A DNA stretch of 64,000 bases from Cetorhinus maximus (taxonomy: Eukaryota). Position 1 is the first letter of the stretch; every line of letters starts with the position of its first letter. The position numbers and the translations under genes were made by a program. The DNA lies in the NCBI RefSeq assembly GCF_964194155.1, contig NC_135896.1:99138001-99202000 (forward strand). Direction: 5' to 3'. Shown piece by piece: positions 1 to 45,048 of the stretch. The notes under the pieces were generated by a model that was not told where the DNA came from, did no database searches, and saw only the letters and a program-made list of their open reading frames with translations.

Positions 1-619
1 ACTTCCCCTTTCTTATGCAATGAGCTGGAGGATTTCAATGAATTTCTTCACAGTGTCTTTTGTGGTGTCACAGCCATCCTGATGTCATTGCAGTGTAAGC
101 AGAGTTTTATTCCAACAGTTGCTTATTCACATTGTTTTTTTTTATATATAATGGGGAAGTTATTGAGGCACAGCACAGGACTCCACTGAACCTTTTGTGT
201 CTGTCCTAACTGCAGGAGAAATCCAAAACAAGTCACTGCACCCTTCTTTCTCCACAGAGCCTTGTATCTTCCTTTACTTCCCCGGCAGGAAATAGAAAAA
301 ACATGAAACCTCATCCACCGGCATAAAATGGCGACGGGGCCCACTTCTCCGGTGGGGATTGGCTCCCCGCCCGCCGGAGATTGGGTCGGGCCCGCCCACC
401 CAGAAGGCAGAAAATTCTGCCCCCAATTTTTTTCCTCCTTGAATAGAGGGACTGCATTGACTTCCATCTGGTCCCATGACCTTCTTTGCATTATGTAAGG
501 AGGATTGAAAAGTTGTGGCCAGCATCTCTGCTGACTCCCCTCTGCTTCCGACAGCCTCAGATACATCAACTCCACTAATGTTTCAGAATGAACATTGTTT
601 CTACAGTTACTCCTAACAA

Positions 620-1200
620 TTGCTCTGTACCTTTCTCTATTAGATCTTATATTCTCATCCCGCCTTCATTTGTAAAAGCTGTTATAAAATGTTTACTTGG
701 TGTCACTTCCATATCTTCATTCAGCACAACTGAATTCCTTGCTCACCCCTGAGTGATCCAACATGCTAACAAAAAAAAACCCCTTACTGTTTCTTTTTAA
801 ATGATCTGCTGGCATCTTTGTAAAGTTCCCTTTGGCCTTTCTAACCACCCTTTTCACCTCACACTACAGTTTCAACAGTTGTGATTAGTACTGATGAACC
901 TCGCTCAAGTCTCTCCTTAGTTTTCATCTCTATTTATACCTGGAAATTTATCCTCTTGCCTCTTAGGAACATATCTTTTCACAACTCACATTTGAAGATT
1001 TCTCCACTGCTGATCTGTCATTTCTATTTGTTGATTTGGGCCAGATCTTTCGTTATTGCAATGAAACTTGGCCCTTTTCCAGTCTCACACCCTCCGGTTT
1101 TATATTTTATTGTCTTGTCCAATTTTCACATTGAACTGAACTGTCTTGTGAGCTTTATTCCCAATTGTTCTCCCGCTCTCTAATCAGTCCTTTGTCCTAC
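620..1200 (-). mobile_element. Degenerate CR1-type LINE fragment
   Basis: Minus strand is purine-rich and resembles CR1 ORF2; no intact ORF; boundaries approximate. Confidence 0.35.
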
Positions 1201-1224
1201 TTCATTTCCCAACATTAAAGTAAG

Positions 1225-1848
1225 CAACAAAAACAAAAATACCTGGAAAAACTCAGCAGGTCTGACAGCATCTGCGGAGAGGGATACAGTTGATGTTTCG
1301 AGTCCGTATGACCCTTCATCAGAACTAAGACATGTAGAAATGAGATGAAATATAAGCTGGTAGAAGGGGGTGGGACAGGAGAGCTCGATAGGGGGCCAGT
1401 GATAGGTGGATGCCAAGAAGAGACTGTCAAAGATGTCATAGACGAAAGGACAAACGTGTGTTGACGGTGGTGATATTATCTAAAGGATGTGCTAATGGGG
1501 ACATTAAGGGAAGTAAGCTAGTGGCAGATGGCCCTAGTGAGGGTGGGGTGGGGGGAAGGAATCGAAAAGGGCTAAAAGGTGGAGATGAAACAATAGATTG
1601 AAATAAATTTAAAAATAGGAGGGAAAAGAAAAAAATATAGTTGTAAAAAAAAGTTATAAATTATTGGAAAAAGGGGGATCAGAAAGGGGGTGGGGATGGA
1701 GGAGAGAGTTCATGATCTGAAATTGTTGAACTCAATATTCAGTCCGGAAGGCTGTAAAGTGCCTAGTCGGAAGATGAGGTGCTGCTCCTCCAGTTTGCGT
1801 TGAGCTTCACTGGAACAATGCAGCAGGCCAAGGACGGACATGTGGGCA
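1225..1848 (-). mobile_element. Penelope-like element 3' end (GIY-YIG C-terminus plus pseudo-LTR tail)
   Basis: AHMSVLGLLHCSSEAQRKLEEQHLIFRLGTLQPSGLNIEFNNFRS is nearly identical to the end of the 37483-37983 ORF, and the 3' tail is shared. Confidence 0.88.
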
Positions 1849-2014
1849 TTTTTAAAAATTAAAATAAGCAATGTCATGTGACATATTAAGTCATCCACCT
1901 GACTGTTCTAGCACTGATTCTCGTGGCAGTCTGCACATCACACATTGGACTTATCAGCCATTTCAGAACCCATTGAACTGGAGTGGAAGCATGCCCTCCT
2001 CGATCCTGAGGGAT

Positions 2015-2950
2015 TGCAACTAAATATTGGGAAGACCAAAGTCACTGGGCAGGATTCTCCGGCCCTTCCCACTGGTGGCATCTTCCGGTCCTGCCGAAGT
2101 CAACAGACATTTGACTAGCTCGCCATACCTGCCATTGCAGAGACCAGCTGCAGCGGGGCCGAAAATCCAAGCCATTGTCTTTGGTCCCAGCCACAAATTT
2201 CACTCCCCAGACCCCAGACACTGACTCCATCCTTCCCTGGCAATTAACCTGAGGCTGAACCAGGCTTTTCACAACTTTGGTTTCACATTTGACCCTGGGA
2301 TGAGCTTCTGACCGCACATCCGTGCCGTCATAAAGTCTGCCTAATTCCATCTCTGTGACACCGCCCAACTCCGCCCTGCCTCAGCTCTTCTGCTGCTGAA
2401 ACCCTCATCCGTGTCTTTTGCGACCTCAGGATGTGACTGTTCCATCACACTCCTGATCAGTCTCCCACACTCCACTCTTGAGGTCACCGAAAACTCTGTT
2501 GCCTTTATCTTAACTTCCACCAAGTTCTGTTCACCTATCAGCCCTGAGTTCAAAGACCTCCACTGGCCTGCATGACTTGATTTTAAAATTCTCATCCTTG
2601 CTTTCAACGCCCTCCCCCACTTTGCAATCTCTGTAAGCCCCTCCAGTCCTACAACCCTACGACATATCTGTGATAATCTAATTCTGGCCTCCTGGGAATT
2701 CGCGATTTTAATTGCAGTATCATTGGCAACTGTGCCTTCAGCTCTCTAGGCCCTAAGCTCTGGAATTCTCTCCCCACAGCTCTCTGCCTCACTCCCTCTC
2801 TTTCTTAAGGTGATCCTTAAAACCTACCTTTTGGTCATCTGTCCTAATATCTCCTTTTAGGGCTTGGGCTTGGTGTCAAATATGGTTTGATAATGCTCCT
2901 GGGATGTTTTTGCTGCATTAAGATGCTATAGAAATACAAGTAGTCATTAT
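2015..2950 (+). mobile_element. L2-type LINE 3' fragment interrupted by a MITE
   Basis: caactaaatattgggaagacc (QLNIGKT) ... ctccactgg (LHW) ... ctctggaattctctccc. Homologous to 50210-50960 on the other strand. Confidence 0.7.
2047..2173. mobile_element. Palindromic MITE (Harbinger-type ends) inside the L2 fragment
   Basis: Ends gggcaggattctccggccc ... ggggccgaaaatccaagcc are flanked by act/att; removing it rejoins the L2 sequence. Confidence 0.6.
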
Positions 2951-3456
2951 TATTGTAGTCAAGCACCCTGGGACATCTCTTTGATGGTCGAGCCACTTTA
3001 GAAATGAAGTTATAGTTGTTGATTATGAAGTATTTAAAAATATTTTTCATCACTCAACCCACTTCTAGAGGATAAACTACATGGCTTAGATATTTTGAAA
3101 GGAGATCCTCTGCTGAGACCTTTTGTTGAGAGCAATTGCTGTTTGGTCACCAGGCATTTTAAAAGCTGTCAAAAGATGCATTGTTTAAAATGCAAATTGC
3201 ACTCTGTTAATAACATGTGTTCATATGTCAGCTAAAAAAGTGTTGGTGAGGGTGTTTGTAGTTGAAAAAGTCGCTTTGTGATGTCACTTTGTCATGTCAC
3301 TTTGTCACTGTGACATCCTTACCTGTGGAAAAATTATTTCTTGTGCCATTTGTAAATTGTCACATGAGGGTTAGCAGTAAATTCGCCTGCTCTTTCAGTG
3401 AATTTTTTTTAAAAATTGACGTTTCTGAACTTTTAATTACTCACTTTTCCAAACAG

Positions 3457-3581
3457 TGTCCAGCTTTGCGTGCTGCTAAATTACCGGAAAGGAAGTGACC
3501 CCAAAGTTTCAACAAAGGAACACTGCAGGCATCGCGGCCTTTGATACTTATTACTTAAACACGTTATTTAGTCCGTCAAAG
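3457..3581 (+). other. Candidate non-coding 5' exon / promoter of microprotein gene A
   Basis: Donor AAG|GTAACG at 3582. ETS-like ccggaa/ggaagt motifs at about 3484-3497 and some local CpGs. No ATG in the frame that would join the coding exon. Confidence 0.3.
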
Positions 3582-4984
3582 GTAACGTTATATTTTTTTT
3601 ATTAAATTGGAAACCTTACCGTAAGACGTATCAATGTTGGTGGATGTTTCATTGTCAATAATGTAGGGTTTTTAAAAAGCTAGTTTACACAGTTTAGTTG
3701 AGTCGTGTGTTAAAGCTTATAGCTTCTTGCTTGAGAAGTTTTAGGTGGCAATGGAGGTTCAAATTTACAACAACGTGTGGGTGGGGGCAGATTTAATCAT
3801 GGCTTTTAATAGGGAGCTGGATAAGCCTCTTAAGAGAGAGGAAATCTGCAGGGCCACAAGGGGAAAGGGGAAAGGGCAGCAGAGTGGAACTGGCTGATTT
3901 GTTCTTGCAGGGAGCTGATACAAGCCTGATGGGCTGAATGGCTTCCTTCTGTGCTGTAACCATTCTATGATTCTAGAATGTGCTCAGTGGATTCTACGCC
4001 AGTCAGTGAAGTAACACAGGTTGGTCAAATATTGCTGACCTGACAATAGGGCAGCAAAATAATTGAACAAAAATTAGAGGAGGGGAGAGTGATGCAGCAA
4101 GAGTTTATTTAAAAATTCTAAACCTTTCCTATTAATTAATAAGCATTCTCTCCTTTGATCGTTTAACTACAGGGCCTCAGCAGGAAAAAACAGAGGAGTG
4201 AAGGCTTTGGTAGAAAACATTTTTAAAATAAGCACTGGTTGGAAGAACCTTTTCCCAGTGTTTTTAACATTCAAAAAACTGTTCTTAGTTGCAGTCCCAT
4301 TTAAATAGAGTAATGCACAGCTATGAATGACGCAGCATTAATTACTAGAAATGTGCACAGGACCAGCAACAAAATATTTTAGCTTCCATTTTTAAAATTG
4401 CAATTTTAAATAATGTTTTGAAAATAAACACAGGATTTATGTGAGGAGTGACTTCATTACCTTGCATTATGATGTCACATGGCACCATTGAACTTGAATT
4501 TTGCCTTGAAAACTTGTAAAAAGACATTTTTATTTGCTTTAACACAAAAATGCATACTAAGTAGCTGATGGTGAATGGAAAATATATCAATAATAATACA
4601 AAATGATTTCCCCAAATACCTTTCCTAATTAGTCATAAGGACTATATATAAACATTGTATCACCACTGAATTATCACTTCAAATATTACTTTTTTGATGT
4701 TCTGCAATGTGCTGGCATAATGCTGAATAGTGAAATCACTGGAATTGATGGCAGTGAGTGTTTATGGGATATTGAGTCACTCGCATCTATGTTGTCCATC
4801 CACCATAATTATTTAGTATGTACCATAAATTATAGAGTATTTGTATAAGGAACAATGTTTGTGTAATTGTTTAATGCATCATGCATTGCATGGTAACTGT
4901 AGTGTACTCTTTAAACAATTTCTGTTTTCCTCACTCCAGTATTTGGAATTCACCCAGATCCAGTCTATCAATCTTCAGAGCAAC

Positions 4985-5203
4985 ATGGCTAGCTGTGCGG
5001 AACTTATGTGGTCCCTTTTCTGGCTTATTGTGCTGTTCTTTATAGGCTGGCCACTCAGTATATTCTTTGGGGGAATCTACGGGTTTTTATCACCTCTGAC
5101 TACCTGTGTTGGACTGGATCAGGTCACCGATGTCCTTCTACAAGGTGCAAATCTGGGCCGAACCTGTGCTGAGAATATGAGATCAAGCAAAGCTCTCTGC
5201 TAA
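4985..5203 (+). CDS. Uncharacterised 72-aa hydrophobic membrane microprotein, paralog A (MASCAELMWSLFWLIVLFFIGWPLSIFFGGIYGFLSPL...KALC)
   Basis: ATG in strong Kozak context (aacATGg). Splice acceptor ttttcctcactccag ends at 4939; AATAAA at 5480. Ungapped 44/72 identity to the ORF at 15440, with the same length and an intact frame. Confidence 0.82.
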   Translation: MASCAELMWSLFWLIVLFFIGWPLSIFFGGIYGFLSPLTTCVGLDQVTDVLLQGANLGRTCAENMRSSKALC

Positions 5204-6804
5204 AAATCAAATGGATGGCTGCTACCCTTTCAGCAACAAAGAAACATTACCACAACTGTGAGCTTTCCACTTCACCACAACTGTGAGCTTTCCACTTCAC
5301 CACTTAGATTCCTGCCGATCACTCCATTTAAAACAAATAGTCACAGAACTTTTCATTTCCTTTCTAACCTTAACCAGTGGCTACAGATTTGTTTTAGCCC
5401 TTTTACAGCAGCTCTAGTGGAATTATACCTTTAGAATGAAAACAAATATATTTTAAATGACTTGCAATTAAAATGCTGCAATAAATGACCATCCTCTCAC
5501 ATTTTTCAAAACATAGTTTCAATATTTATTTAAAATTCTAATTTATAGAAATACCCCAACTTACTGTTTACAAGAATCTATGGTCAGAATCTGCAGAAAG
5601 AAAATCTCATGTGCCCTAGATTCACACAACGCTGAAGGTACACAGGGACTATGTACTGTGGTGGTGAATTATCAGAAAATAAATGTCTAGTAATATCAGC
5701 AAGGAGAGCATGAAATAAACCATATGAGGAGTGCTTCACTTACTGTAATGCAACACTTCTTGATGTATTCTGCTTATTGTACATGTTATGTTTTTCTAAG
5801 TGGGCATTTGTTAAATGTAAAATCAAGTTATCAGCATTTCTTTCCTTTAGACAGAGATTGTGGCTTAATATATTTACTATAAGTGACAATGCAACGTCAT
5901 AGGTGCTCACACTGTCCTTTTACCCTGGGGATGAGTTTTCAGGCCAGGCCTACCCGGATGGATGGAATGAGACATTTCCTTGTGTTTTTTAGTTGTATGG
6001 TCCTACAGGAAGTGAGATTAGACAGTCTATGCAGCTCCTGGTGCTTTTCAATCCTCATTGTAAAACTATACACAGATGTCCACCTAATCGGCACTTTCTC
6101 TTAGAGAGGTCATAACATTTGCTAGTTTTGATAAGAGTAAAATTTACACTGGTGTAGAAAGGAGAGCCAGGAAACAGTTGTGTGGAGTTTACTCTGTACT
6201 ACAAATGTTCAAAGTTTTCAAATGGGTTGCATGGGTACAAATCGCAAGGGTTGCATAGTGGGCAGGAAATTGGGCTCGTTAGTGCAAGTTTATAGAGCTT
6301 CAAATGGCAAGCACTGTGCGTGTGCACACTTGTGGGATGAATTGCACTGGATACCATATTGATGAGGTGCACACAGTGAATGTCCACCACAAGTACGCAG
6401 AGCAGGCAGACCGTGACATCCATCAGTGTGCCATTTTGGAGCTCGACACTCTAACTAATGCCCTCACTTAATCTTGCAAAGCTGAACATGTGATCAGCAT
6501 CAGGAAGGATCATATCAATGCTGGTTAACAACTTCATCAACTAGTTGCTGGGTGATTTCTTCTGGCTGTTGCTATGGTTCTACAGGTGCCTGTTACTTGT
6601 TACTGTTTAAAGGTGCAAAAGCTTACAAGGGGTGGTGTGTGAGTTGCTGAAGGACTTTTTGTTGACTTCAAGGCTTCTGCACAAACTAGCTGCTCTGAGA
6701 CATGGGAGCAGTAGTCTAAATCCTCCTTGGACTACAGCATGATGGGCAGAATAAGCAGAGGTGACACAGAGCAGGACAAACTGCTGGAAGAGGGAGGAGG
6801 AGGA

Positions 6805-7140
6805 GCCATATCCACCCAGCCTCACTAGGAGGCCATATCCACCCAGCCTCACTAGGAGGCCATATCCACCCAGCCTCACTAGGAGGCCATATCCACCCAG
6901 CCTCACTAGGAGGCCATATCCACCCAGCCTCACTAGGAGGCCATATCCACCCAGCCTCACTAGGAGGCCATATCCACCCAGCCTCACTAGGAGGCCATAT
7001 CCACCCAGCCTCACTAGGAGGCCATATCCACCCAGCCTCACTAGGAGGCCATATCCACCCAGCCTCACTAGGAGGCCATATCCACCCAGCCTCACTAGGA
7101 GGCCATATCCACCCAGCCTCACTAGGAGGCCATATCCACC
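6805..7140 (+). repeat. 27-bp minisatellite (gccatatccacccagcctcactaggag), about 12.4 copies
   Basis: Perfect tandem units with starts every 27 nt from 6805 to 7129. Confidence 0.97.
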
Positions 7141-7867
7141 TAGAGTATTCGGCGAGCTGTTCCTCTACCTGAACCTCAGTGCGAAACAAGGTGTGAGACA
7201 CCTAATCTTCAGTAAGGATATCCTCATTGACATTACCATCTCCTCCAATCACAACTGCGACCTCAGAGCAGGGCAAAGACTGTATTACCAGTGGTTGTGA
7301 AAGGTGATTGTGGTGATGAACTTTCATGCACCTGATTCCTTCCAGGTTGGAGCTGGAGATATTAGCAACATCTCGCAGTTTACATTATTGCAAAGGGAGG
7401 TCACTGAGACTCTCTATTCAAAGTGAGCTAATTACATTCCATTCTTTCTTACCAGAGTGAAGCAAGGGAATCGAGCACATGGCTTCACTAATATTACTGG
7501 CTTCTCCACAGTGCCGGGTGCCATTGACTGCACTCACATCACTTTAGCAGGCACTGCATGCCAATGCTGCCCTGTACCAGAAGAAAGGGATTCCACTCCC
7601 TCAGTATCCAGCTGGTGTTTAACTATGGACAGAGAATCATGCAGGTCAGTGTCCGATATCCTGGCAGCAGCCATGACGTCTTCGTTCTGTGGCAGTCCGC
7701 TGTGCCAGATGCAAATGAGCCACCATGGCAAACCAAAGGGTAGCAACTGGACAACAAGGGCTATCCACTGGCAATCTGGCTCATGACTCTGCTTTGCAAC
7801 CCACACACACACGTGGGCGCAATATGGAAACAATGAAAGCCATGCTGCCATATGAAATGTGATAAAG

Positions 7868-9973
7868 CAGTGGTTGTCAGCTGAGGATCCACTGACCCCT
7901 AGGGGTCTGCAAGAAGATTTCAAGGGGTCAGTCATAAATAAACCCTGGAATGAAAAAAAAATCAGATTTTAACCAAGGGGAAAAAACACCATCGTTGGAA
8001 GGTGGGATCGCGCTGAGCAGACAGGTGGCTCTGATCCTGACTCAGACCTTTCCTGTTTCCTGAACATTTGTGAAGTGACATTGACAACAGCTGCTGAGCT
8101 GCAGGCTTCCCGCTCACTGAGAAGGGAGAGAATTGGTGCTCACTGGTCACCAGGTGCAGACCCCTGGCTCAAACCTCTTGTCCGCTGGTTTCACTGTATA
8201 TTTTGTCGCCCCGCCCCCCCCCACGACATTCACTCCCACCCCAGGCTTAACTGGAACAATTGCTCTTCTACCTTTACTCCCCTGAATCCTCTCACTGCCA
8301 TTCGTCACCAACAGGGACTGTAGCCCATTCAGCTCATGTATTCTGTCACGTTTGAAATCAGCCAATGGTGGCTCTGGGCACCCTGTGTACGTTGGTTCTA
8401 TTTCAGGTTTGAATTTACCTTGTCCTGTTTTTGTTAATCTCAGTCTCAACTGTCAACCAAATAGAGCAGGGCCAAAGAGGCGTGGTGACCACTGCAAGTA
8501 GGAAAAGAGCTGCTGAGGTCAACAGTGAGTTGATGTATTTGTGGAGGAAGTACATTGAAATATGTTAACATCAGGAAACTATTAGGATAGGTATGACCAG
8601 CAAAACTGACCGATTGTAAACTTACTTAAATATTCTAAATATTTACATTTTTCCTGCCATGTTCTCTTCTGTTGCTGTCAGTGTTGAGGCAGGCGGCAGT
8701 ATAGCTACAGGGCCAGGAAGTTTTGGCAGTAGCAGGAATCCTGCCACAGGGGCCAAAAGCAGGAGGTGGGGTAACACTGCTTCGGAGGGCAATGATACCT
8801 AGGCAAGAACAAACTAAGGGGCAGCCACCAGACCTGCCATCCAATTCATCCAACTGAGGACAGTGCCTCCCCCACCCCACCACGGCACCCCACCTCTGCA
8901 CCCCACCCCCATACCCCACCACCGCACACCACCACCGCACCCCACCACCGCATCCCACCTCCGCACCCCACCTCCGCACCCCACCCCCATACCCCACCAC
9001 CGCACCCCACCACCGTACCCCACCTCCGCACCCCACCTCCGCACCCCACCCCCATACCCCACCACCGCACCCCACCACTGCACCCCACCACCGTACCCCA
9101 CCTCCGCACCCCACCTCCGCACCCCACCCCCATACCCCACCACCGCACCCCACCACCGCACCCCACCACCGCACCCCACCTCCGCACCCCACCTCCGCAC
9201 CCCACCCCCATACCCCACCTCCGCACCCCACCCCCATACCCCACACCGCACCCCACACCGCACCCCACCACCGTACCCCACCACCGCACCCCACCTCCGC
9301 ACCCCACCACCGCACCCCACCACCGCACCCCACCTCCCTCGGAGCTGCAGACCTAATGAGAGGCCCAGCAGCGCCACTGGTGCCAGTGGCCATTACAGGA
9401 GCTGCACCCACAGGATGAGTGTGCATTAACGAATGTGTGCAGTCACAGTCAGGTCTGGGGGCCCCCAGGGATGATCAGGCAGCCTCAAGCAAGGTGGGGG
9501 TTTGGGTTGCTGAGGGAAGACAGCTCTGATGCTGTAGAAGCAGCCATTGCCACCAGGGGTCAATGTGGGTCCAAGAGTGCCCAAAAAAGGTGGGCTCCCC
9601 CTCCCACCTCACCGCCAACCCTGGGAATCTGCTGGGAGGCAGCCAGCATTTACTTGTCCCAAATGGCGGAAGAACTTCTACTGATGGTAAAATATCAGCA
9701 GAACAGAGATGGGGAGAGACCCTTAATTGGCCACTTGAGGGTAAAGAGGGAGACTGGGAGTCAGGTCTTCTGTGGTAGGAAACAGGGAGCAGGGTGGATG
9801 TGAGGATCAGGATTTACTGCGGTGCTGGGACAGCAGCAGCAGCGACAGTAACTATGGTGACCGGGAGAAACTCTGACAGAATTCTATGCAGAAAGTACAC
9901 TTGTTACAGAGGGCCTGAGGGATTTGTATAACATGCAAGGGAACCTCAGAAGCAAAAATGTTGAGAACCCCTG
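7868..9973. mobile_element. Non-autonomous hAT-type DNA transposon nested in the Harbinger transposase
   Basis: Termini CAGTGGTTGTCAGC ... GTTGAGAACCCCTG; degenerate 8-bp TSD tgataaag/tgacggag. Confidence 0.75.
8870..9335. repeat. C-rich degenerate minisatellite, about 13-bp unit (ccccacc[t/a]ccgca and variants)
   Basis: Direct inspection; it generates several spurious Pro/His- and Gly/Trp-rich ORFs. Confidence 0.93.
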
Positions 9974-10439
9974 TGACGGAGCAGACCATTGGTGTAATTA
10001 AACAACATTACCCCTGTCCCACTGATCTGGCAGAGCCCTGTGGTATTTGGCAGGATAGGTGTCAATATCGTGGTGGTCTGCTACATACCCACAACCACAT
10101 CCTCCTGAGGGGACAGCACTTGCCACCAGCTGTACAGTGAGTAGCCAAGGAGAGGAGCGTGAGGTAGGAGAGGAGGAGGAGAAGGTAGGGAGGAGGCAAC
10201 CCAGGCAGTTCCTTTCTGCCCTGGCTGTCTGTGAAGAGCACATTAGACCAGGATGCCCATAACCGCATTCACAACTCCTCAATCACCAAACCTTACTGTC
10301 CCTCTGTCACTGACCATCACAGGCTCCACAATGTAAAATACAAGCTGGAAGAAAATAAAAATTCCAAACCAAATTTACAAATGTGACCTTTCCATATTGC
10401 ATACAAAAGTCAAACGTTTACCCGTGTGCACTCCCTTAG

Positions 10440-12193
10440 TGCCTGTCTCCCCTGTGCCTTTGCCTGTCCCAGTGCTTCTACACTGTGCTATCCCAGTGAC
10501 TGCAGCATAGCCGATGGAAGGCTGCTGACCTTCACTGGGGAGACTGCCCTAGAAGGCAAAGATCTGCAACATCTCCGCATGGGCAGCTGTCTGGGATTGT
10601 TAGGTGACACACAAGGACACTGGCAATAGTGGGAGAATGAACACTGTGTCCAAACTGGAGAGCAGGACCCTGCTCCACAGAGCCAGTGATGCTCCCCTGG
10701 AGCTGAGCCTGCCCTCCTGCTGGAGCACAGATTGTTGGCACAGCTGTGACACATTCAAAGGCCTTTTGCACACTGTAATCCACAGCCATGATAGTAGTAA
10801 GCTGACCTTGCATGAGAGCCCTCAGAGTTGGTACTTACAGCACTCAGATGCTGGGTGGCTGTTGCTAATGTGCAATGGAATTTGCAACATTGGCCATCAG
10901 ACACTGTATCATGGTTGGATTCACAAGTGTTCGAAGAGTTGGCTGCCACAACACTGGAAAGGATGGGCTCCATGTTCTGCGCAAAGCCAGTGCCAACTTG
11001 GTGTTGGACTCCTCCAAGCTCCTTGGCAATGACCGCAGGCTCTCTGACAGGTTTCCCAACGCACCAAGAGTTTTGTCCTGCATAACCATTAGCGTTCTTC
11101 TGTAGGTTTCCCCATTGAAGTGCTCATCTGAGTCCACTGTAACACAACCCGTGTACAGCCTCACCCTCTGGCGAGCTGGCACCTTAGCTATCCTTGTCCC
11201 CTGCCTTCAGCCCACTTGTGCCCGGTATCTTAACACGTGTTGGTTCCACCTCTACCCTCCAAGGTAGATGTGGATCAATCAGTGTCAGTGCTTGAGCTGG
11301 TGGCTGTGGGTGTGATATCAAGTAACAGCACTGTGTCTTCATCATCTGTCTTCTTGCTGTTCCTCCACTTCCTGGTTAGGCTACACCTCTTGGTTTTCTG
11401 AAAGGTAAAAGGCAGTACAGGTTGTACTGAGGGGAAGGAAGGAAGTAAAAGGTGTATGCTTACACCATCTACAGCTTATAAATCAGGAGAGGGTGCAGGA
11501 TGAAGGAGAGGTGGGTGTGAGAAGGAGGATTAGGTATGAGGATAGCATTATCTTCAAGGCAGTATGGCCACATCCTCAGCAATGGGTCTCCCAATAATGG
11601 CCAGTACATCTCCCCCATGGAGGTTAGGACATGCAGGTGCACCTGTCCTCCTCCGGTTAGCTCCTCTTGGCTCTGGCTGTGTGACACCTTGTCCGGCAAG
11701 AGACAGGGAAGCGAGTCAGTGAGTAATCTGTTTGACTGATGTGGCTATCATGGTTGAATAGTTGGCAAAGTGTGCAAGCTGGGAGATATGGGTGTGAGGC
11801 TTGCATTGGTGCTAACTATGAGGGTGAAGTGAAGAAAATGGATGTTAGATATGAGTCCTGATTGATGGAGATTGTTGGTAGTTGAGTGATGGGGGATATG
11901 GTGAATTGGGCAGTTTCTGAGGCTGGTAGTGTAGTTGTTAGGATATGGCATTTGAAGATGCATCCACTGACCTTGACCACTCATGTGAGGTCACTGAACT
12001 CTTTGTGACACTATATCCAGGTCCTCAGGGCTTATCCCCGAGCATTGACCCCACCGCTATCTGCCCCCGCTGCTTTTTTTACTGTGTGTCCGGAGGACCT
12101 CTTGACCCTCTGGAGATACAGAACATCTCTCCTTCCTCCCACCGTGGCAACATCTGCAGACCTTGGAACCTGCTCTTTCCCATGTTGTACCAT
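10440..12193 (-). pseudogene. Harbinger Myb/SANT-like DNA-binding gene remnant
   Basis: Minus-strand exon 12193-11972 reads MVQHGKEQVPRSAD...RRDVLY...RTWI*CHKEFSDLT*VVK and ends at donor AAG|GTCAGT. Coiled-coil-like ORF at 10865-11182. Confidence 0.7.
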
Positions 12194-12434
12194 TCGTCAC
12201 TGTTACCTAGATCAGAGTCACTTCCTGTATGACTGCCAGCACCTGCTCCAGCCGCAATGCACCTCCCCTTTAAGAGATGCCGGCTAACTTTAAATAGTGT
12301 AGGCTAGCTTTAAGTGGTGCTAGTGAGTCATGATTTTGCAGCCCTGCTGATGTGTGCAGCCAATGAACAGTGTGGTTAGCACCCACCTACACCCAGCAAC
12401 CATTCAAATGAGCAGGCAGATCTTGTTACGTACG

Positions 12435-12760
12435 AACATATAAACGTACGAATTAGGAGCAGGAGTAGGCCACTCGGCCCCTCGAGCCTGCTCTACCATT
12501 CAATAAGATCGTGGCTGATCTGAATGTAACCTCAACCCCACATTCCTGCCTGCCCCCAATAACCTTTCACCCCCTTGTCTATCAAGAATCTATCTAGCTC
12601 CGCCTTAAAAATATTCAAAGACTCTGCTTCCACCGCCTTTTGAGGAAGAGAGTTCCAAAGACTCAACCCTCTGAGAGAAAAAATTTCTCCTCATCTCTGT
12701 CTTCAATGAGCGACCCCTTATTTTTAAACAGTGACCCCCCTAGTTCTAGATTCTCCCACA
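12435..12760 (-). mobile_element. CR1 LINE 3' end
   Basis: Reverse complement of the CR1 tail at 24200-24420. Confidence 0.8.
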
Positions 12761-15439
12761 GGTACTTGGTGAAGTATTCTCATAGTGGTACCATTGGGAC
12801 TTCTTTTCCAATCTCCTTTCAGAATAGGGACCTCTCATCAGTTAAATGCAGGTACTGGTGGCTTGCCAGAGGCTTCTTGCTCCAGACATATCAGATGGAG
12901 GATTCTCATTGGTGGAGGAAAATGGCCCTGAGGCCAAAAAAAATGAAGAGAAATGAAGAGGATTGCCACAGGGCCTCATGAAAATCTAAGCACCATCAGA
13001 AAATAATGAAGAAAAGTAATCAAGATGTGGCTTTAAAACTGCCCAATCCTATTGTGCCCTTTGGGCTAACCGTTCATAACTCTTCCTCAGCAATCCAATG
13101 TGCCAATTTCATGTGGGCATCACTTGACCCCCATGTCCTACATGCCAGAAGGTCAGGAAATTACATGCCGGATCCCCTTGCCAGAAATTAATTCTTAATG
13201 AATGCTTAATTAACGAATGCTTAATTAATTAATGCTCAATTAAGCTCCTGCATGCTTGAGGTTGAAAGTTCCAAAGAAGAGTCATTTGACCTGAAATATT
13301 AACTCTGTTTCTCTCTCCACAGACCCTGCCAGACCTGCTGAATTTTTCTAGCACTTCCTGTTTTTATCCTGGGATTTCCACTCCTGATATCCCCTGTATT
13401 GGGAGGTTATGTGTGCCCCAGTGAGTGTGAACCAGTGGGATGAAATTTGCCCAATTTTACAGTCAGGTCCGCCCAATCTATGCTTACCCAAAGGGCAAAA
13501 TTATTTGAAAAATCTAAGTACCTAAAGTTGCTATCTTATTATATTATATATTATATATTATTGCAAAGAAAGTCACTGATAGTTTATCGTCACAGGTTGT
13601 CACCATTTCTAGTGAACCAAAAGAGAATGAATAGTGGTATCCACATAAATAAAACATCTGTACCTGACCAGCTCATGTTTAGCCATGGTTGAAAGCTGGG
13701 ATTTGTTGCTTATCCATCCTTCAAATATATCAACATCTGCAGGATTGGAACTGATGGATAATTTATCAGTTCTCATCTCAAATAATGTGACCAACTGGGG
13801 CAAAGAAAAGAATCCATACACATCTTTCAAAGCTACTGTACAACTTTGTCATCAGGTTCTTATAGGAGAAAGCTGTGATCAGTACCATTGTGCACATTGC
13901 AGAGTCATAATGTAAACTGTGCTAACCAGGCAGGCACAGCATAAAGAACAACTGCTTTACAACTGCCTCCTAGACAGCACACTAGCCTAAGTCAAGATAT
14001 GAAGATGCTCTATGTCTGACTCTATAAAAGAAAGCAAATAGTACTAGACAAGTCCAAAATTACATTCAAAGGTGCCATTACAAAATGGTAGTGGATGGAG
14101 CTGTCTTTACAGAGGGCAGCCTGTTACTTTGAATCAAGTTGTGGTGCCCAGAGATATACAAGGAAAAAGCTCTGATCAACTCACAATCTTTTGATGTACA
14201 GATGAATTTGAAGAGTAGCTCCAAAGTCTTGGTGCTAATAGGGAGCAGATCCCACAGGAGCACCTGGATCAGTCAAACTTTGTGGACTATTGAATTGACC
14301 CATTAACATCATTCTGCCACCCAGGTGTGTCTGCATTGGTTGATTTTTGTCATGCTTTTCCAGTCCACTTGTGTAGTCTAACAGCTGAATGTTTTGTGAA
14401 ATATATATAACTTTAAATAATTTAACATTTTTATTAATTTGTCTTGTGTGAGAAGAAACATTCATTGATGATCAAACATTTTAGCTTCTTTTGAAGATGA
14501 TATAAGTCGTGCGGAATAGTGAGATCACTGCATATGGTAATCACTAGACTGAGTGTGTCTCTGAGGCACAAGGCCACTCAGTCCTACATTTTCTAATGTA
14601 CCTTTCCACTATATTTTTAATCCTAACATAAGGGCATCGACCTGAAACATTAATTCTATTTCTTTCTTTGCAGATGCTGCCTGACCTGCTGAGTGTTTCT
14701 AACAATTTCTGTTTTAATTTCAAGTTTCCAACATCCACAATATATTGTTGCTGTATTTCCATCTACTGGTTAATTATTATGTATTCACAACATCAATGTA
14801 AATTCAGGAGCATAATCACATCGCTACACCTCCGGGTGTAAGGTTATGACGTTGTCCTTCATTCTCTACCTCAAGTCTGGGAATCGGATCAGATCTGCGC
14901 TGCCAGTGTTAGCCTTGACTCTGAGAATCCCATTTTCAACAGCCTCAACTCCAGCTCAGATCTGGCTATGCTGCTGCTCGATCCCCAGCCATGGATTCCA
15001 TGATTTTTCCATAGAAGCAGTGATAGCCACGCTGCTACCCATCCACAAGCCATGGATCCTACACCATCCTGTTCTGAGAACCTGCCCCTGGATCTGCACG
15101 GAGATTTGCCCCATCCCGTGTGCAACACAATGGCAGCTGCGCGTGAACGTGGAGAAGAAGAATCTCCTCCCGAAGCTCTACCTGAAGACAATGTGAACTG
15201 AAGCAAGCCCCAAGGCAAAATACATTGTGGACTGGCAAATATGCAAGCCTGCTTTCTAAAATACTGGCTATGTTGTACTCCTGGGTAATTGTTTTGTGTG
15301 AAAATTACATTCATACTGTATCTGCACACGATTCTCATGATGACTGTAGAGTTCTTTTTAATTTGATTCATTTTTTTCATTCCAGCATTTGGGATTGACT
15401 CAGACCCGGTTCGTCAACTTTTCCAGGCTACAGAACAAC

Positions 15440-15658
15440 ATGGCTAAAGACAAAAATCGTCTCTGGTCCCTTTTCTGGTTAATTGTGTTTGTTTTCTTTG
15501 GTTGGCCGCTTGGTATTTTTCTAGGTGGATTGTATGGCTTTCTCTCTCCTCTGGATGATTTCCTTGGACTCAATGAAATAACTGATGCCCTTCTGAAAGG
15601 TGCAAACCTGGGCAGACTCTGTGCTAAAAACATGATAAAAGGTAAACCTGCCTGTTGA
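15440..15658 (+). CDS. Uncharacterised 72-aa hydrophobic membrane microprotein, paralog B (MAKDKNRLWSLFWLIVFVFFGWPLGIFLGGLYGFLSPL...KPAC)
   Basis: aacATGg Kozak context. Acceptor tttttttcattccag ends at 15385; AATAAA at 15849. Paralogous to 4985-5203. Confidence 0.82.
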   Translation: MAKDKNRLWSLFWLIVFVFFGWPLGIFLGGLYGFLSPLDDFLGLNEITDALLKGANLGRLCAKNMIKGKPAC

Positions 15659-16594
15659 AAAGCACCATCGCTACCATTTCAACTACTTCACTACAACCGG
15701 CACAAAGTTTTACTTTACCACAAAAATGACGGCGGATTTAATGTATTTTAAAATCTACTGAGGGGCATCACCTTGCTGAACTCTGTGGGTGGCTGTTGAT
15801 AATTTAATTTTTATTAATACCGTTGTACGCCCTTTTCAAACAAAGACAAATAAACTCACTTTGCATCATTCGCTGTCGTCACCTTCATAAATTTCTTACT
15901 TTATTTAGAAGCTCTCAGTTTATATAAATAGCACAATTTTCTACCCTGTGCACAAGTAGGTGAACGGATTCTGTGAAATGTTCTAGTCCCCCACATAAGG
16001 CTTTGCTTGTGTGGCAGAGAGATCCCCTCCCAGGCTCTTGGAATACAATTCCATCTCTTGCTATATTTGTACTTTGTTCAGTAATGTATGCAATCCATTT
16101 TTAAAATTTAAGTTTAATTAGTTTTACATTTGTAAGCAGCTAAGATTTCTCTTACCTCCAGTCGGTCAGCCCTCATATCCTGCTCCAGCCAAGATGTCGA
16201 TAGGTCTAAGTTTATATTTACTTCATTTATTCCTCCACTTTATTTAAGTTCCTGCAGCAGGTGAGAGTTCTGGAGGTAGAACACGAGCAGATCCAGTTGA
16301 AGTGTTTTCACCCATCGATTCTGGCCTCTGATCCCCAAACATTCTGCCACTTCCAGCCCCAGGAGGTCTTATCTGGCCCAACTTTGGCCCCCAAATCTAG
16401 AAACATCCTTGAGCCTCCAATCCCGCGACTGTGAAAAATCTTCTCTGTACAAAAACCATAGGTTATTTAATTCTACTCCTGACTCTGGCCTCCAGACATT
16501 AGATGTCATGAGCCAAGCTGTTTTCTATATCCCCAGATGTGGCTGACAATCTACCTGAAAGTGGTTATTCACCTCATCAATAAAATCGATAAAA

Positions 16595-28314: not shown

Positions 28315-28608
<294 letters not shown>

Positions 28609-28908
28609 TAGCCTCATCTTTAGTGAAATGTAAAACTCGCCAGGATTTTGTACAGTTGTTTGCTCAACTTTAGAAGCTTTCCCAACTTGAGACACTCAAA
28701 CTTTACCATTTCTAGGGTCTCCGACGTTGTACTCTTAAACTTTTTAATCAAGTAGTAAAATTTGCTCTTTAAGTTATTGACTAAATGCTTATGCGTTTGG
28801 TCTGTGCCAAAAATTTATTCATTATCACCTTATAGTACAGACTGAACAATATGAAGGTAGAAGCTGGTTAATGTTCAAACAGTTAATGTATCTTTTTATA
28901 CATCATAG

Positions 28909-29256
<348 letters not shown>

Positions 29257-29554
29257 TGATGCTTACTGACATGACAGATACTTCAGACAGTCCCCTGAAA
29301 TTACAGGACTTACTTTCAAATGTAAAATCCCAGGAACCAGTAGAATTTAAAGAATATTGATTTCACATTTTTTAAAATTATCATCCAAAATATTACTGCA
29401 TATTAATTTTATTTAACAAACATTGATAAGCCTTATCAGTAATTCATCCATAATGAATATAATGCTTCTGAATTTTGTATTACATTGATGGAGATACTGA
29501 AATGTAAAATTGACCTATAATCATTACCTGAGAAATGCTGAATCTGTGATGTGA

Positions 29555-30126
<572 letters not shown>

Positions 30127-30480
30127 TGACTTTGATAGGCACTCTGAAATATAAATATTACTGTCCAGAAAGTCTGGTTGTGAAGGATAAAACAGGAGTC
30201 GATCTTTACATACTTTTATAAACATTTATTCACAGAGATGTACATTATAAACATATACTTCCTAAGCTCAGGCTCCAATTCTCATCTGTTCCTATTTATA
30301 GGAGACTAAGCGAATCCCTAGTGAATACCCACCACCTGTAACCAGTTCAGTGCAATTAATATACAACTAACAACCTATACCCAATACCTAAAAATGTTCA
30401 ATCATTCCAGTCAAACTTCTCTAATGAATTAAAACCTGCAGGTAATACATGTAAATCTATGATAAGAACCTACTGATGGA

Positions 30481-30619
30481 AACTCTTTCGAGTTATCAAC
30501 AGTCACAGATTGCAACTCTTTTGAGTACAATCACAGTTCTTGGTTTCCGGGAGTGGGACATGAACCCACAACCCTCTGATTCAAAGGTGAGGGTGCTATG
30601 AACTGAGCCACAGCTGACA
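30481..30619 (-). repeat. 139-bp element with a tRNA-SINE-like head, copy 1 (ACTC1 intron 5)
   Basis: 130/139 identical to the reverse complement of 47087-47225. Confidence 0.85.
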
Positions 30620-30622
30620 TGA

Positions 30623-31015
<393 letters not shown>

Positions 31016-31300
31016 TAATAAAAGAAGTGGAATTAAATTTTAGCGCAATTCCAGAAATGTTATAGGCAAAACTATTGTGCATTCTGCTAGTACTATATAT
31101 AATTGTAAAAGATACTCTGTTCTTACAACAGATGCTAATTTAAGCAAATTTATTCCTTAATCATCTAATTTTGATAATTCTCTGTTATTTTATAACATAC
31201 TATTACCGTACAATTTTAAGATTTCTAAAATATTCCTGTGCTGCAATGTGTGAAGATAGATTTCAGGTAGAATTGCTTCAGTGCATACCAGTGCTAATGA

Positions 31301-36322: not shown

Positions 36323-38413
36323 TCCAGGACTGTTTGTTTCCAGGACTGTCACTGACCTCATCTCCTCTGGAGATCTTCCTCCCACAGCTTCCAACCTGAT
36401 AGTCGCCCAACCTCGGACGGCCCGCTCTATCTCCTACCCAAAATCCACAAACAGAACTGTCCCGGCAGACCGATCGTGTCAGCCTGTTCCTGCCCCACGG
36501 AACTCATTTCTCGTTATCTTGACTCCCTTCTCTCTCCCCTTGTCCAGTCCCTTCCCACCTACATCCATGATTCCTCTGACACCTTACGTCACATCAACAA
36601 TTTCCAGTTCCCTGGCCCCAACCGCTTCCTCTTCACCATGGACGTCCAATCCCTCTACACCTCCATCCCCCACCAGGATGGTCTTAGCTTCTTCCTTGAA
36701 CAGAGGCCCGAACAATCCCCATCCACCACTACTCTCCTCCGTCTGGCTGAACTTGTTCTTACACTGAACAATTTCTCCTTTAACTCCCCTCACTTCCTCC
36801 AAATAAAAGGTGTGGCTATGGGTACCCGCATGGGCCCCAGCTATGCCTGTCTCTTTATGGGGTATGTGGAACATTCCTTGTTCCAGTCCTACTCCGGCCC
36901 CCTCCCACAACTCTTTCTCCGGTACATCGATGATTACTTCGGTGCTGCTTCATGCTCTCGTCGGGACCTGGAAAAATTTATTAATTTTGCTTTCAATCTC
37001 CACCCCTCCATCATTTTCACATGGTCCATCTCTGACACTTCCCTTCCCTTCCTTGACCGCTCTGTCTCAATTTCTGGTGATAGACTGTCCACCAATATCC
37101 ATTACAAGCCTACCGGCTCCCACAGCTACCTCGACTACAGCTCCTCACACCCCGCTTCCTGTAAGGACTCCATCCCATTCTTTCAGTTCATTCGCCTCCG
37201 TCGCATCTGTTCTGATGATGCTACCTTCAAAAACAGTTCCTCTGACATGTCCTCCTTCTTCCTTAACCGAAGTTTTCCACCCACGGTCGTTGACAGGGCC
37301 CTCAACCGTGTCCGGCCCATCTCCCGCGCATCCGCCCTCACGCCTTCTCCTCCCTCCCAGAAACATGATAGGGTCCCCCTTATCACCCCACCAGCCTCTG
37401 CATTCGAAGGATCATCCTCCGCCATTTCCGCCAACTCCAGCATGATGCCACCACCAAACACATCTTCCCTTCACCCCACCTGGTGGCATTCCGTAGGGAT
37501 CGTTCCCTCCGGGACACCCTGGTCCACTCCTCCATCACCCCCTACTCCTCAACCCCCACCTATGGCACCTCCCCATGCCCACGCAGAAGATGCAACACCT
37601 GCCCCTTCACTTCCTCTCTCCTCACCGTCCAAGGGCCCAAACACTCCTTTCAAGTGAAGCAGCATTTCACTTGCATTTCCCCTAACTTAGTCTACTGCAT
37701 TCGTTGCTCCCAATGCGGTCTCCTCTACATTGGAGAGACCAAACGTAAACTGGGCGACCGCTTTGCAGAACACCTGCGGTCTGTCCGCAAGAAAGACCCA
37801 AACCTCCCTGTCGCTTGCCATTTTAACACTCCACCCTGCTCTCTTGCCCACATGTCTGTCCTTGGCTTACTGCATTGTTCCAGTGAAGCCCAACGCAAAC
37901 TGGAGGAACAGCACCTCATCTTCCAACTAAGCACTTTACAGCCTTCTGGACTGAATATTGAATTCAACAACTTTAGATCTTGAACTCCCTCCTCCATCCC
38001 CACCCCCTTTCTGTTTCTTCCCCCTCCCTTTTGTTTTTTCCAATAATTTATACAGATTTTTCTTTTCCCACCTATTTCCATTATTTCCAAATCTACCTTG
38101 AGTGTCCTGCCATCCATTCTTAATTAGCACATTCGTTTAGATAATATCACCACCTTCAACACCTCTTTGTTCCTTTGTCTGTGACATCTTTTGATTAACT
38201 GCTCCTATCACTGCTTGCTTGTCCCTACAACCACCTCCCCCCCAACTTCTCTCCCCCCACCCCCCCCACCTTAAATCACCTTATATTTCACCCCTCTCCT
38301 AATATTACTCAGTTCTGTTGAAGGGTCATGAAGACTCGAAACGTCAACTCTTTTCTTCTCCGCCGATGCTGCCAGACCTGCTGAGTTTTTCCAGGTAATT
38401 CTGTTTTTGTTTT
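36323..38413 (+). mobile_element. Penelope-like retroelement, 5'-truncated (RT plus GIY-YIG endonuclease, frameshifted)
   Basis: MDVQSLYT, GVAMGTRMGPSYA, RYIDD and VYCIRC..YIGET motifs. 13-bp direct repeat ctcatttcatgtc at 36310-36322 and 38414-38426. Confidence 0.93.
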
Positions 38414-43525: not shown

Positions 43526-44210
43526 TAAGAGGATTGCCAAGATCTGCAAAATCAGCAAAACGAACCCTTAACGCGGCCAAGTCAGTTCGGGCGTAGCATT
43601 CATCCCGAAGAGTTTAATCCATTATTATGTATCCATAATGACTGTTAGCTTTGCTAGCATTTCAATCCAGGTCGCGGAGCATCTCAGATCCAGGAAATTT
43701 CAAAGGTACCTTGGAAACAGGGAGGGTAAAAGTAAATGTGCGTTTGGAAGCGGATGGTTGGTTCGCCTGTGGGCGAATGGCCTTCCCCGAGTCTCTGCTA
43801 GCAATGTGAACGTGTACAGAGTTGCATAAAAATGAGCCTCTCCTCGGAGTTGTGTGGGTGGATGGTTTGCAACTTGGGAGGGACCCGGGGTAGAGAATGT
43901 GTTTGGGGGGGTGGGGGGGTGGGGGGTAAAAAGCAGGCGGCCCCTTTAGGGGCAGGAACCTTGATCCATGTTCTCCCCCAAGTTGTCACTACGAAGTGAC
44001 AGTGAGTCCACATGCAATGATCCTATCACTGGTCTGGTGGAGATCAGTTTGCACAACCTGGATCATATCTTTTATTTTTAATGGTTCATTAAAGAATGCA
44101 CTTTGTCTACTTTAAAAAAAACAAACAGGCGGGTCTCCCAGAAGGACCTTTACAGTTACCAAACGGGCTGAAGCACTTCCACCTTCTATTTATTCTATCT
44201 CCTCTCTTAG

Positions 44211-45048
44211 GATTTTGCTGACGGTGGTGGTTATCTTCCGTATCCTGGTCGTGGCTATTGTCGGGGAGACGGTGTATGATGACGAGCAGACTATGTTTGT
44301 CTGCAACACTCTTCAGCCCGGCTGTAACCAAGCCTGTTACGACAAAGCTTTCCCAATCTCCCACATACGTTACTGGGTGTTCCAGATCATCATGGTGTGC
44401 ACCCCCAGCCTCTGCTTCATAACCTACTCGGTCCACCAGTCCTCCAAGCAGAGGGAGAGGCAGTATGCCAGCGTCTTCATCACAATGGACAAAGACAAGA
44501 AGAGGGAAGACAACAAGATTAAAAATACAATTGTGAACGGCATTCTCCAGAACTCGGAAAATCCGATGAAGGGGACCCAGGCAGACTTTCTGGAAGTCAA
44601 AGAAATGCAAAACTCGGCTGCCAGGAACAGCAAAATGTCGAAAATACGGCGGCAAGAAGGGATTTCCCGTTTCTACATCATCCAGGTGGTTTTCAGAAAT
44701 GCCCTGGAGATCGGGTTCCTGATGGGACAGTATTTCCTGTACGGATTCAATGTCCCGTCCATGTATGTGTGTGACCGCTACCCCTGCATTAAAGAGGTCG
44801 AGTGCTATGTGTCCAGACCCACCGAGAAGACGGTGTTCCTGGTCTTCATGTTCGCGGTGAGTGGACTCTGTGTCGTCCTGAACTTGGCGGAACTGAATCA
44901 CCTGGGCTGGAGGAAGATCAAAACGGCGGTGAGAGGGGCGCAGGAACGGCGGAAATCCATCTATGAGATCAGAAACAAGGATTCGCCGCACAGAATGGGG
45001 GTGCCCAACTTCGGCCGGACTCAATCCAGTGACTCGGCTTATGTGTGA
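44211..45048 (+). CDS. GJD2: Gap junction delta-2 (connexin 35/36), coding exon 2
   Basis: [12 protein letters not shown]...[14 protein letters not shown]...[12 protein letters not shown]...[10 protein letters not shown]. Spliced CDS is 909 nt = 302 aa and ends in the PDZ-binding SAYV. Confidence 0.97.

Follow-up and report, generated by a model that had tools for sequence, protein, structure and literature searches.

A tandem pair of predicted 72-residue microproteins upstream of a muscle actin gene in Cetorhinus maximus points to an ancient, undescribed family

Introduction

Two open reading frames (ORFs) upstream of a muscle actin gene of the shark Cetorhinus maximus, each of 72 codons plus a stop, raise the question of whether so small a pair can be a pair of genes and, if it is, what such proteins might do. 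They lie on contig NC_135896.1 of NCBI RefSeq assembly GCF_964194155.1, in a stretch of 64,000 nucleotides (positions 99,138,001 to 99,202,000, forward strand) that we call the window, and positions are counted from its first letter unless otherwise stated. Copy A (P0001), the conserved orthologue-type copy, occupies 4985..5203 and copy B (P0002), its diverged tandem paralogue, 15440..15658, both on the plus strand and with 10,455 bases between their start codons. A first-pass annotation, made from the letters alone, had proposed an old microprotein family under selection, retained and duplicated in this lineage and small enough for annotation to miss. Sequence comparison identifies a real, ancient and undescribed microprotein family whose sequences are already in the databases. 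As a duplication the tandem pair is ordinary; the finding lies in the family.

Two reading frames under selection

The positions, the length of 72 residues and the gapless identity of the two ORFs (44/72 residues) that had been claimed were reproduced, and the conserved blocks and terminal cysteine quoted for them are all present in both. Each copy stands behind a pyrimidine-tract AG acceptor, ending at 4939 for A and at 15385 for B, with exons from 4940 and 15386; the acceptor of B (15361..15385, plus strand), predicted from the sequence, is homologous to that of A. The start context caacATGg is common to both, and AATAAA follows A first at 5480..5485 (plus strand; others at 5678 and 5714) and B at 15849..15854 (plus strand), which confirms the acceptor, start context and downstream signal reported for each. 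A holds four cysteines and B two: a basic N-terminus in B replaces the cysteine-bearing one of A, T39D and C41F follow, and two aspartates stand just ahead of the turn of the hairpin described below. The changed N-terminus and the turn aspartates suggest an altered location or partner for copy B. The 3' untranslated region (UTR) of A contains a perfect 25-base tandem duplication at 5249-5303.

Codon positions 1, 2 and 3 are identical between A and B at 46/72, 60/72 and 38/72 respectively. By the Nei–Gojobori method (NG86), the nonsynonymous (dN) and synonymous (dS) distances are 0.30 and 1.22, a dN/dS of 0.25 (bootstrap median 0.23, upper bound 0.49), and a Fisher test gives p 6e-6. Insertions and deletions are many in the flanks and zero in the coding sequence (CDS), and when neutral evolution was simulated with substitutions only, the frame survived in 0.3-4% of 5000 runs per setting. 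Thirty columns are conserved across 32 other vertebrate rows; A keeps 29 of them and B 25, and the two copies agree at 24/30 of these conserved columns against 20/42 of the variable ones (p 0.007). Purifying selection on A and B is confirmed on this comparison of sequences, the dN/dS and the Fisher test bearing out the earlier inference of selection on frame and length.

The pair is also confined to this place. A protein search of the 4.0 Gb genome gave three matches from four candidates, every one at this locus, and a DNA search with B matched B and A only; a query with an invertebrate member added only three matches, stop-containing and at E 0.35-0.76. Remote paralogues were sought with single-protein queries. 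The ORF of a high-copy transposable element, an alternative named at the outset, is ruled out by these three matches at one locus. The third of them, copy C (L003, ~1479-1660; contig ~99124883, about 13 kb upstream of the window), has its ATG shifted by one base from the frame of the conserved block, has lost the homologous acceptor AG and carries several deletions. By its sequence copy C is a pseudogene, and the array would once have held three copies. Copy A is almost certainly a real gene, and copy B, judged on its sequence, is very probably functional.

Transcription and splicing of copy A

Four of 22 listed sequencing runs, presumed to be RNA (none is on record as RNA), were compared with window positions 1-6700. 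In two of these four, X2 and X3, which come from two related species and two studies, contigs join 3579 to 4938, and the joint has GT..AG ends when the cut is set at +2. With donor and acceptor present in the sequence, these contigs define a GT-AG intron at 3582..4939 (plus strand), so that the predicted splicing into 4940 is matched by an exact joint in the related species. The upstream exon, at 3458..3581 (plus strand), is non-coding and contains no ATG; the contigs span 3455/3457-3579, its 5' boundary is placed from an acceptor-like AG at 3456-3457, and it may be an internal exon. The coding exon with its UTRs extends over 4940..5749 (plus strand), with an approximate 3' end, the contigs stopping at 5604 (X3), 5749 (X2) and 5827 (X15).

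A run from Cetorhinus maximus itself (X1) gave a 294-base contig identical to 5135-5428, with zero differences, and the X15 contig covers 5195-5827; X1 and X15 do not contain the splice joint. The 169 bases 5' of the start codon of A hold no ATG, and the first ATG after the two known exons is that of the ORF. The contigs differ from the CDS at four positions at least, and of the differences listed three are synonymous and one is V42I. The X2 contig carries 785 extra bases before 3455 that match nowhere in 1-6700, and acceptor-like sequence lies ahead of the upstream exon, at 3420-3460; on both grounds more 5' exons probably lie upstream of 3458. The 785 bases would be either such exons or read-through from AQR (Aquarius), the gene upstream.

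Range and history of the family

A single-sequence protein search returned 10 proteins, profile searches 39 and 45, and a broad profile search 209 clusters (50% identity), 150 of them listed. Named vertebrate members come from sharks, many teleosts, six frog species, two salamanders, a sea turtle and a cobra, and named non-vertebrate members from amphioxus, mosquito, ladybird, cockroach, snail, tubeworm and the amoebozoan Pelomyxa (E 4.5e-17; a single record, for which contamination is possible). The profile searches uphold the early suggestion of an old unnamed family with invertebrate relatives: it takes in animals and at least one amoebozoan record, and has no name or model in the libraries searched. 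Two shark proteins are 97% identical to A, and most bony-vertebrate proteins 55-74%. Examples are KAE8587505.1 (Xenopus tropicalis), OCT68710.1 and OCT64775.1 (X. laevis), scyTo_0004675, chiPu_0006564 and LOC128720706 (Anopheles nili).

Every named record is titled 'hypothetical', 'unnamed' or 'uncharacterized', and many database models wrongly run on through the intron or join the protein to AQR or to actin. The gene is thus more often mis-annotated, as an extended or fused 'hypothetical protein', than missed, as had been supposed. The proposal of a gene retained and duplicated in this lineage holds for the tandem duplicate; a retention special to the lineage does not, as orthologues occur in teleosts, amphibians, turtle and cobra. 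No mammal or bird is among the named records, many records being nameless, and this distribution suggests a loss in mammals and birds.

Library searches gave A no Pfam family and B one chance-level match, and 124 members showed scattered weak Pfam matches only, the commonest being DUF7248 (6/124). NCBIfam returned nothing for six proteins, and PDB sequences gave two matches only, at E 0.62 and 4.5. Searches of the literature by locus, record identifier and description, with supplements and most subscription journals outside their scope, found no paper on the gene.

A tree built from 43 rows and 72 columns joins A to the two shark proteins (support 100/98); B comes out at the vertebrate base, on a long branch whose position has no support and with an unsettled bootstrap. 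From this position and the dS of 1.2 we infer that B is older than the split of those sharks. The idea that B is an orthologue of the reptile proteins is unsupported by the tree. Frame-shifted or degraded relatives (the P0071 cluster of seven members, and P0070) are sister to the intact unnamed protein P0048 in a reptile-containing clade (99/95), a placement by which the gene appears to be decaying in one amniote lineage. Other frame-shifted or degraded unnamed relatives near P0048 are P0054, P0132 and P0147. The cobra model P0059 contains two different copies in tandem, which indicates that local duplication has recurred. Independent paralogues are seen in P0059, P0068, P0069 and P0074 and, in salamanders, P0072 and P0143, several with long acidic N-terminal extensions. 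Four predicted chains (P0087, P0102, P0111 and P0184) hold two family units each, as internal repeats or fused tandem genes.

A predicted two-helix hairpin

What kind of protein has been conserved? Computed over 226 aligned units, residues 7-44 are nearly charge-free and include the conserved W13, L17, W22, P23, Y32, P37 and C41, with W13 conserved at 97-99% and Y32 at 84-96%. The charge-free stretch comes to 38 residues in A (7-44) and 31 in B, which is long for a single bilayer crossing. The stretch 45-67 is amphipathic, its polar residues sharing one face and L51, G54 and A62 lying opposite, and the hydrophobic moment peaks at 1.65-1.68 over 43-56. The short members (at most 80 residues, n=79) have a median length of 72 and a mean of 4.8 cysteines, and 39/79 end in Cys. 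Counts of C41 and C61 in 147 non-vertebrates are both in 70, C41 only in 61, C61 only in 13 and neither in 3.

AlphaFold models A as helices 4-42, 45-55 and 57-67, with a predicted local distance difference test (pLDDT) of 81, and gives a matching helix pattern for a distant member (P0102), whose two-unit model gained nothing beyond unit 1. In VIA-align, both models match antiparallel hairpins such as CHMP4B or Snf7 over nearly the whole unit; the best Z scores of 6.8 and 7.0 are background, the hits are generic hairpins, and no caveolin is among the best 50 rows. Foldseek against PDB and viral sets found nothing at E 0.001 or better. Mean-field covariation, at an effective depth of 141, pairs L14 with M65 at z 7.6, where shuffling reaches at most 3.9-5.0, and an antiparallel band (i+j 73-83, 19% of pairs) holds 9 of the top 20 pairs, or 11/20 in non-vertebrates. 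Models and covariation make an antiparallel two-helix hairpin the probable fold.

Mode of action and its rivals

How might such a hairpin work? In the mechanism we propose, helix 1 (4-42) would pack on helix 2 (45-67) by a stripe of small residues (10, 21, 25, 29 and 36), and the outer face of helix 2 would bear all the polar residues (45, 46, 49, 53, 56, 59, 63, 64 and 67). The hairpin would lie flat in one membrane leaflet with its polar stripe facing the cytosol, held there by fatty-acylated cysteines, and could serve as a small wedge for organising membrane domains or partner membrane proteins; copy A would be the conserved orthologue, and copy B an older duplicate that has kept the fold and altered its N-terminus and turn. 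Flat placement in one leaflet is the simplest arrangement because the apolar helix has some 35 residues and the second is half polar, so that a monomer crossing the bilayer would bury the polar stripe. Acylation suits the cysteines better than a fixed disulphide, since those at the N-terminus, in the turn, in helix 2 and at the C-terminus come and go one at a time. Taken whole, this monotopic, acylated organiser is a tentative reading that falls a little short of probable, and its monotopic and acylated placement has the same standing; the in-plane topology, the acylation and any oligomers are things we infer, and the organising role is possible but rather doubtful.

Several observations pull the other way. 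The RNA nature of the runs is a guess, and their comparison had no DNA run as a control. Neither near B nor near C was a homologue of exon 1 found (the best local score, 51 where the mean is 27, fell at distant places), no B-type paralogue was found among the database matches, the nearest relative of B standing at 64%, and B has just two cysteines. As to the fold, the predicted template modelling score (pTM) is 0.54, L14-M65 is the sole pair above the shuffled maximum, the antiparallel band was picked after the list was viewed, and AlphaFold and covariation share overlapping sequences and are hence not independent. As to topology, W13 and Y32 are 19 residues apart, an ordinary spacing for a transmembrane helix and one that fits rival arrangements.

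One such arrangement is a single-pass membrane regulator, in which residues ~10-32 span the bilayer, the amphipathic helix rests on the surface, and the protein tunes a pump, channel or enzyme, as do the small single-pass regulators phospholamban, sarcolipin and the FXYD proteins. W9/W13 and Y32 bracket an apolar stretch of 19-23 residues, the size matches that of known regulators, and the locus adjoins a muscle actin gene, although proximity to actin is no proof of co-expression. However, the apolar stretch in A runs on to residue 44, no Pfam family of such regulators appears among the 124 members scanned, and the covarying pairs 14-65, 16-61, 25-58 and 28-50 require helix 2 to be folded back along helix 1. 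We regard this alternative as unlikely.

A second doubt concerns copy B rather than the fold: B could be a silenced duplicate that has yet to decay, with A the sole working gene. The missing exon-1 homologue near B, the five conserved columns altered in B and the absence of its type of protein among the database matches all favour such a history. Yet at a dS of 1.2 the frame, length, start, stop, acceptor and poly(A) signal of B are all intact, and copy C displays what local decay looks like, unlike B; a silenced B is improbable. Equally improbable is a secreted or surface-tethered cysteine-rich signal of the kind proposed for the plant TAXIMIN family, with the N-terminal apolar stretch serving as a signal peptide and the rest as the ligand. 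TAXIMIN is the best named ESM Atlas family both for A and for the amoebozoan member, and TAXIMINs are described in PMC4526920 as 73-75 residues long, very hydrophobic, rich in Cys and Pro and membrane-localised. Against this, Atlas scores below 0.9 are leads only, the cysteines are not conserved as pairs, and W9, W13, L17, W22 and P23 are among the most conserved residues, while N-terminal apolar residues covary with the C-terminus, unlike those of a disposable signal peptide. An N-terminal helix that is both conserved and covarying argues against signal-peptide cleavage.

An oligomeric pore, with both helices spanning the membrane and a central channel lined by the polar stripe of helix 2, would accord with the roughly bilayer length of helix 2 (45-67), with its antiparallel course to helix 1 and with the two units per chain in P0087, P0102 and P0111, which are possibly fused models. 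The charge sign of the stripe varies, unlike that of a conserved pore (net -1.9 in vertebrates and +0.1 in others, over 45-56), and the fold searches, with best Z 6.8-7.0 within background, single out no channel; a pore is very unlikely. Least probable is a minimal caveolin relative, whose Gly-x-Pro helix would be homologous to the caveolin spoke region and would form amphipathic discs: one of 124 members matches Pfam Caveolin (E 0.0024) and hhalign sets GWP against the caveolin GxP over 24-25 columns at 7% and 34% probability, but trimmed alignments fall to ~4%, 0-2/60 block shuffles reach the score and the reversed non-vertebrate profile equals it (17.6 against 17.1), the lead was chosen after a scan of 24,736 families, the comparison profile has five rows only, there is no space for hook and signature motif, and the result is not significant.

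The surrounding locus

Upstream of the window, on the same strand, lie exons of the Aquarius N-domain (57-73 kb away), and the last AQR exon ends ~22 kb away with its own AATAAA. Downstream of B, coding exons of a muscle actin, which we take from its N-terminus and the gene order to be ACTC1, occupy 28435..31018 (plus strand; approximate, later exons follow; Pfam Actin, E 2e-39). A connexin exon at 44116..45048 (plus strand; Pfam Connexin, E 1e-82) presumably belongs to a GJD2-like gene, so named from the gene order. In salmonid and piranha models (P0022, P0024, P0027) and the unnamed P0065 the ORF is fused behind the AQR C-terminus, and in an electric-eel model (P0044) it is fused to actin; by these fused teleost models the order AQR-microprotein-actin is common to this shark and teleosts. 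The fusions with AQR could be model error or genuine read-through.

Between copies C and A, ~10 to 4 kb upstream of the window, are long GC-rich and other minisatellite arrays, and a GC-rich insertion between A and B contains minisatellites at 6801-7140 (27 bases x 12.6) and 8873-9334 (13 bases x 35.7). A Pfam scan of the frames near 7427-7786 gave no match at E 0.001; these frames carry a motif resembling one of Harbinger-type transposases. A broken retroelement at 36356-37983, in which a reverse-transcriptase match (RVT_1, E 3e-6, below the cut-off) precedes a frame resembling a GIY-YIG nuclease, is presumably Penelope-like.

Significance

Small conserved membrane proteins are a known kind, and this family is one hitherto undescribed. 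It sits at a much-studied vertebrate locus, and its presence in Xenopus and teleosts makes knock-out and tagging possible now. Gene predictors often fuse the microprotein to AQR or actin, so that those models are corrupted too.

We can speculate further that there is a pan-eukaryotic superfamily of acylated hairpins of ~72 residues which includes TAXIMIN, its vertebrate branch having held its place between AQR and ACTC1 from sharks to reptiles, undergone repeated tandem duplication and disappeared from mammals; we consider this possible but unlikely as it stands. If it were true, TAXIMIN would be a membrane-resident hairpin and not a secreted hormone, and the genetics of fish, frogs and insects could be used to study it. 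Were both the mammalian loss and the TAXIMIN link true, a plant developmental regulator would be joined to an animal gene that is invisible to human-centred microprotein surveys.

Comparison with known systems

The nearest named family is TAXIMIN. In the ESM Atlas the top matches of A are unnamed, mostly arthropod clusters (0.94-0.95), and TAXIMIN is the first named family (0.80, 170 of 256 features); the Pelomyxa member finds TAXIMIN at 0.86 with 184 features, and two more TAXIMIN clusters at 0.86 and 0.76. As scores below 0.9 are leads, the recognition value of the Pelomyxa query is below the mark, and the two queries represent one family and one tool, the resemblance is a lead only, drawn from Atlas feature scores. 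[quoted passage not shown]

Length (72 against 73-75 residues), strong hydrophobicity and several cysteines bring the two families together on that description. Three prolines are frequent in non-vertebrate members, P23 in 64%, P37 in 81% and P58 in 86%, vertebrates having Gly at 58, and might correspond in position to those of TAXIMIN. The families differ in the cysteines, six and conserved in TAXIMIN by the same account, against four in A and two in B, not fixed in pairs in the microprotein family. No TAXIMIN-like row was recognised by eye among the 150 of 209 profile matches listed, and the TAXIMIN literature found was, by title, all plant papers. We do not file the microprotein family under TAXIMIN, because the six-cysteine feature is absent and the likeness comes without an alignment.

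Caveolin (PF01146) was rejected as a relative: the hook, signature motif and scaffolding helix, elements described along with the spoke region in PMC12330381, are missing, and only 21-25 columns align, at Gly-x-Pro. The comparison set was five caveolin exons of the same genome. Ahead of the aligned columns the microprotein has 14-17 residues against 36-39 in the caveolin exon; it is about half as long as caveolin and has no predicted C-terminal strand. Both are small apolar helical proteins in which a long stretch free of charge contains Gly-x-Pro and leads into amphipathic helices, and the in-plane membrane mode proposed here would be that of caveolin. The caveolin exons (L010-L018) are paired on contigs C23, C6 and C820, and C2468 holds a near-duplicate.

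Reticulon- and REEP-type hairpins combine an over-long hydrophobic segment with an amphipathic helix, and CYSTM proteins are small cysteine-rich membrane anchors; the microprotein resembles both. Neither is among the Pfam matches shown for the 124 members, and here, in contrast to them, the unit is the whole protein.

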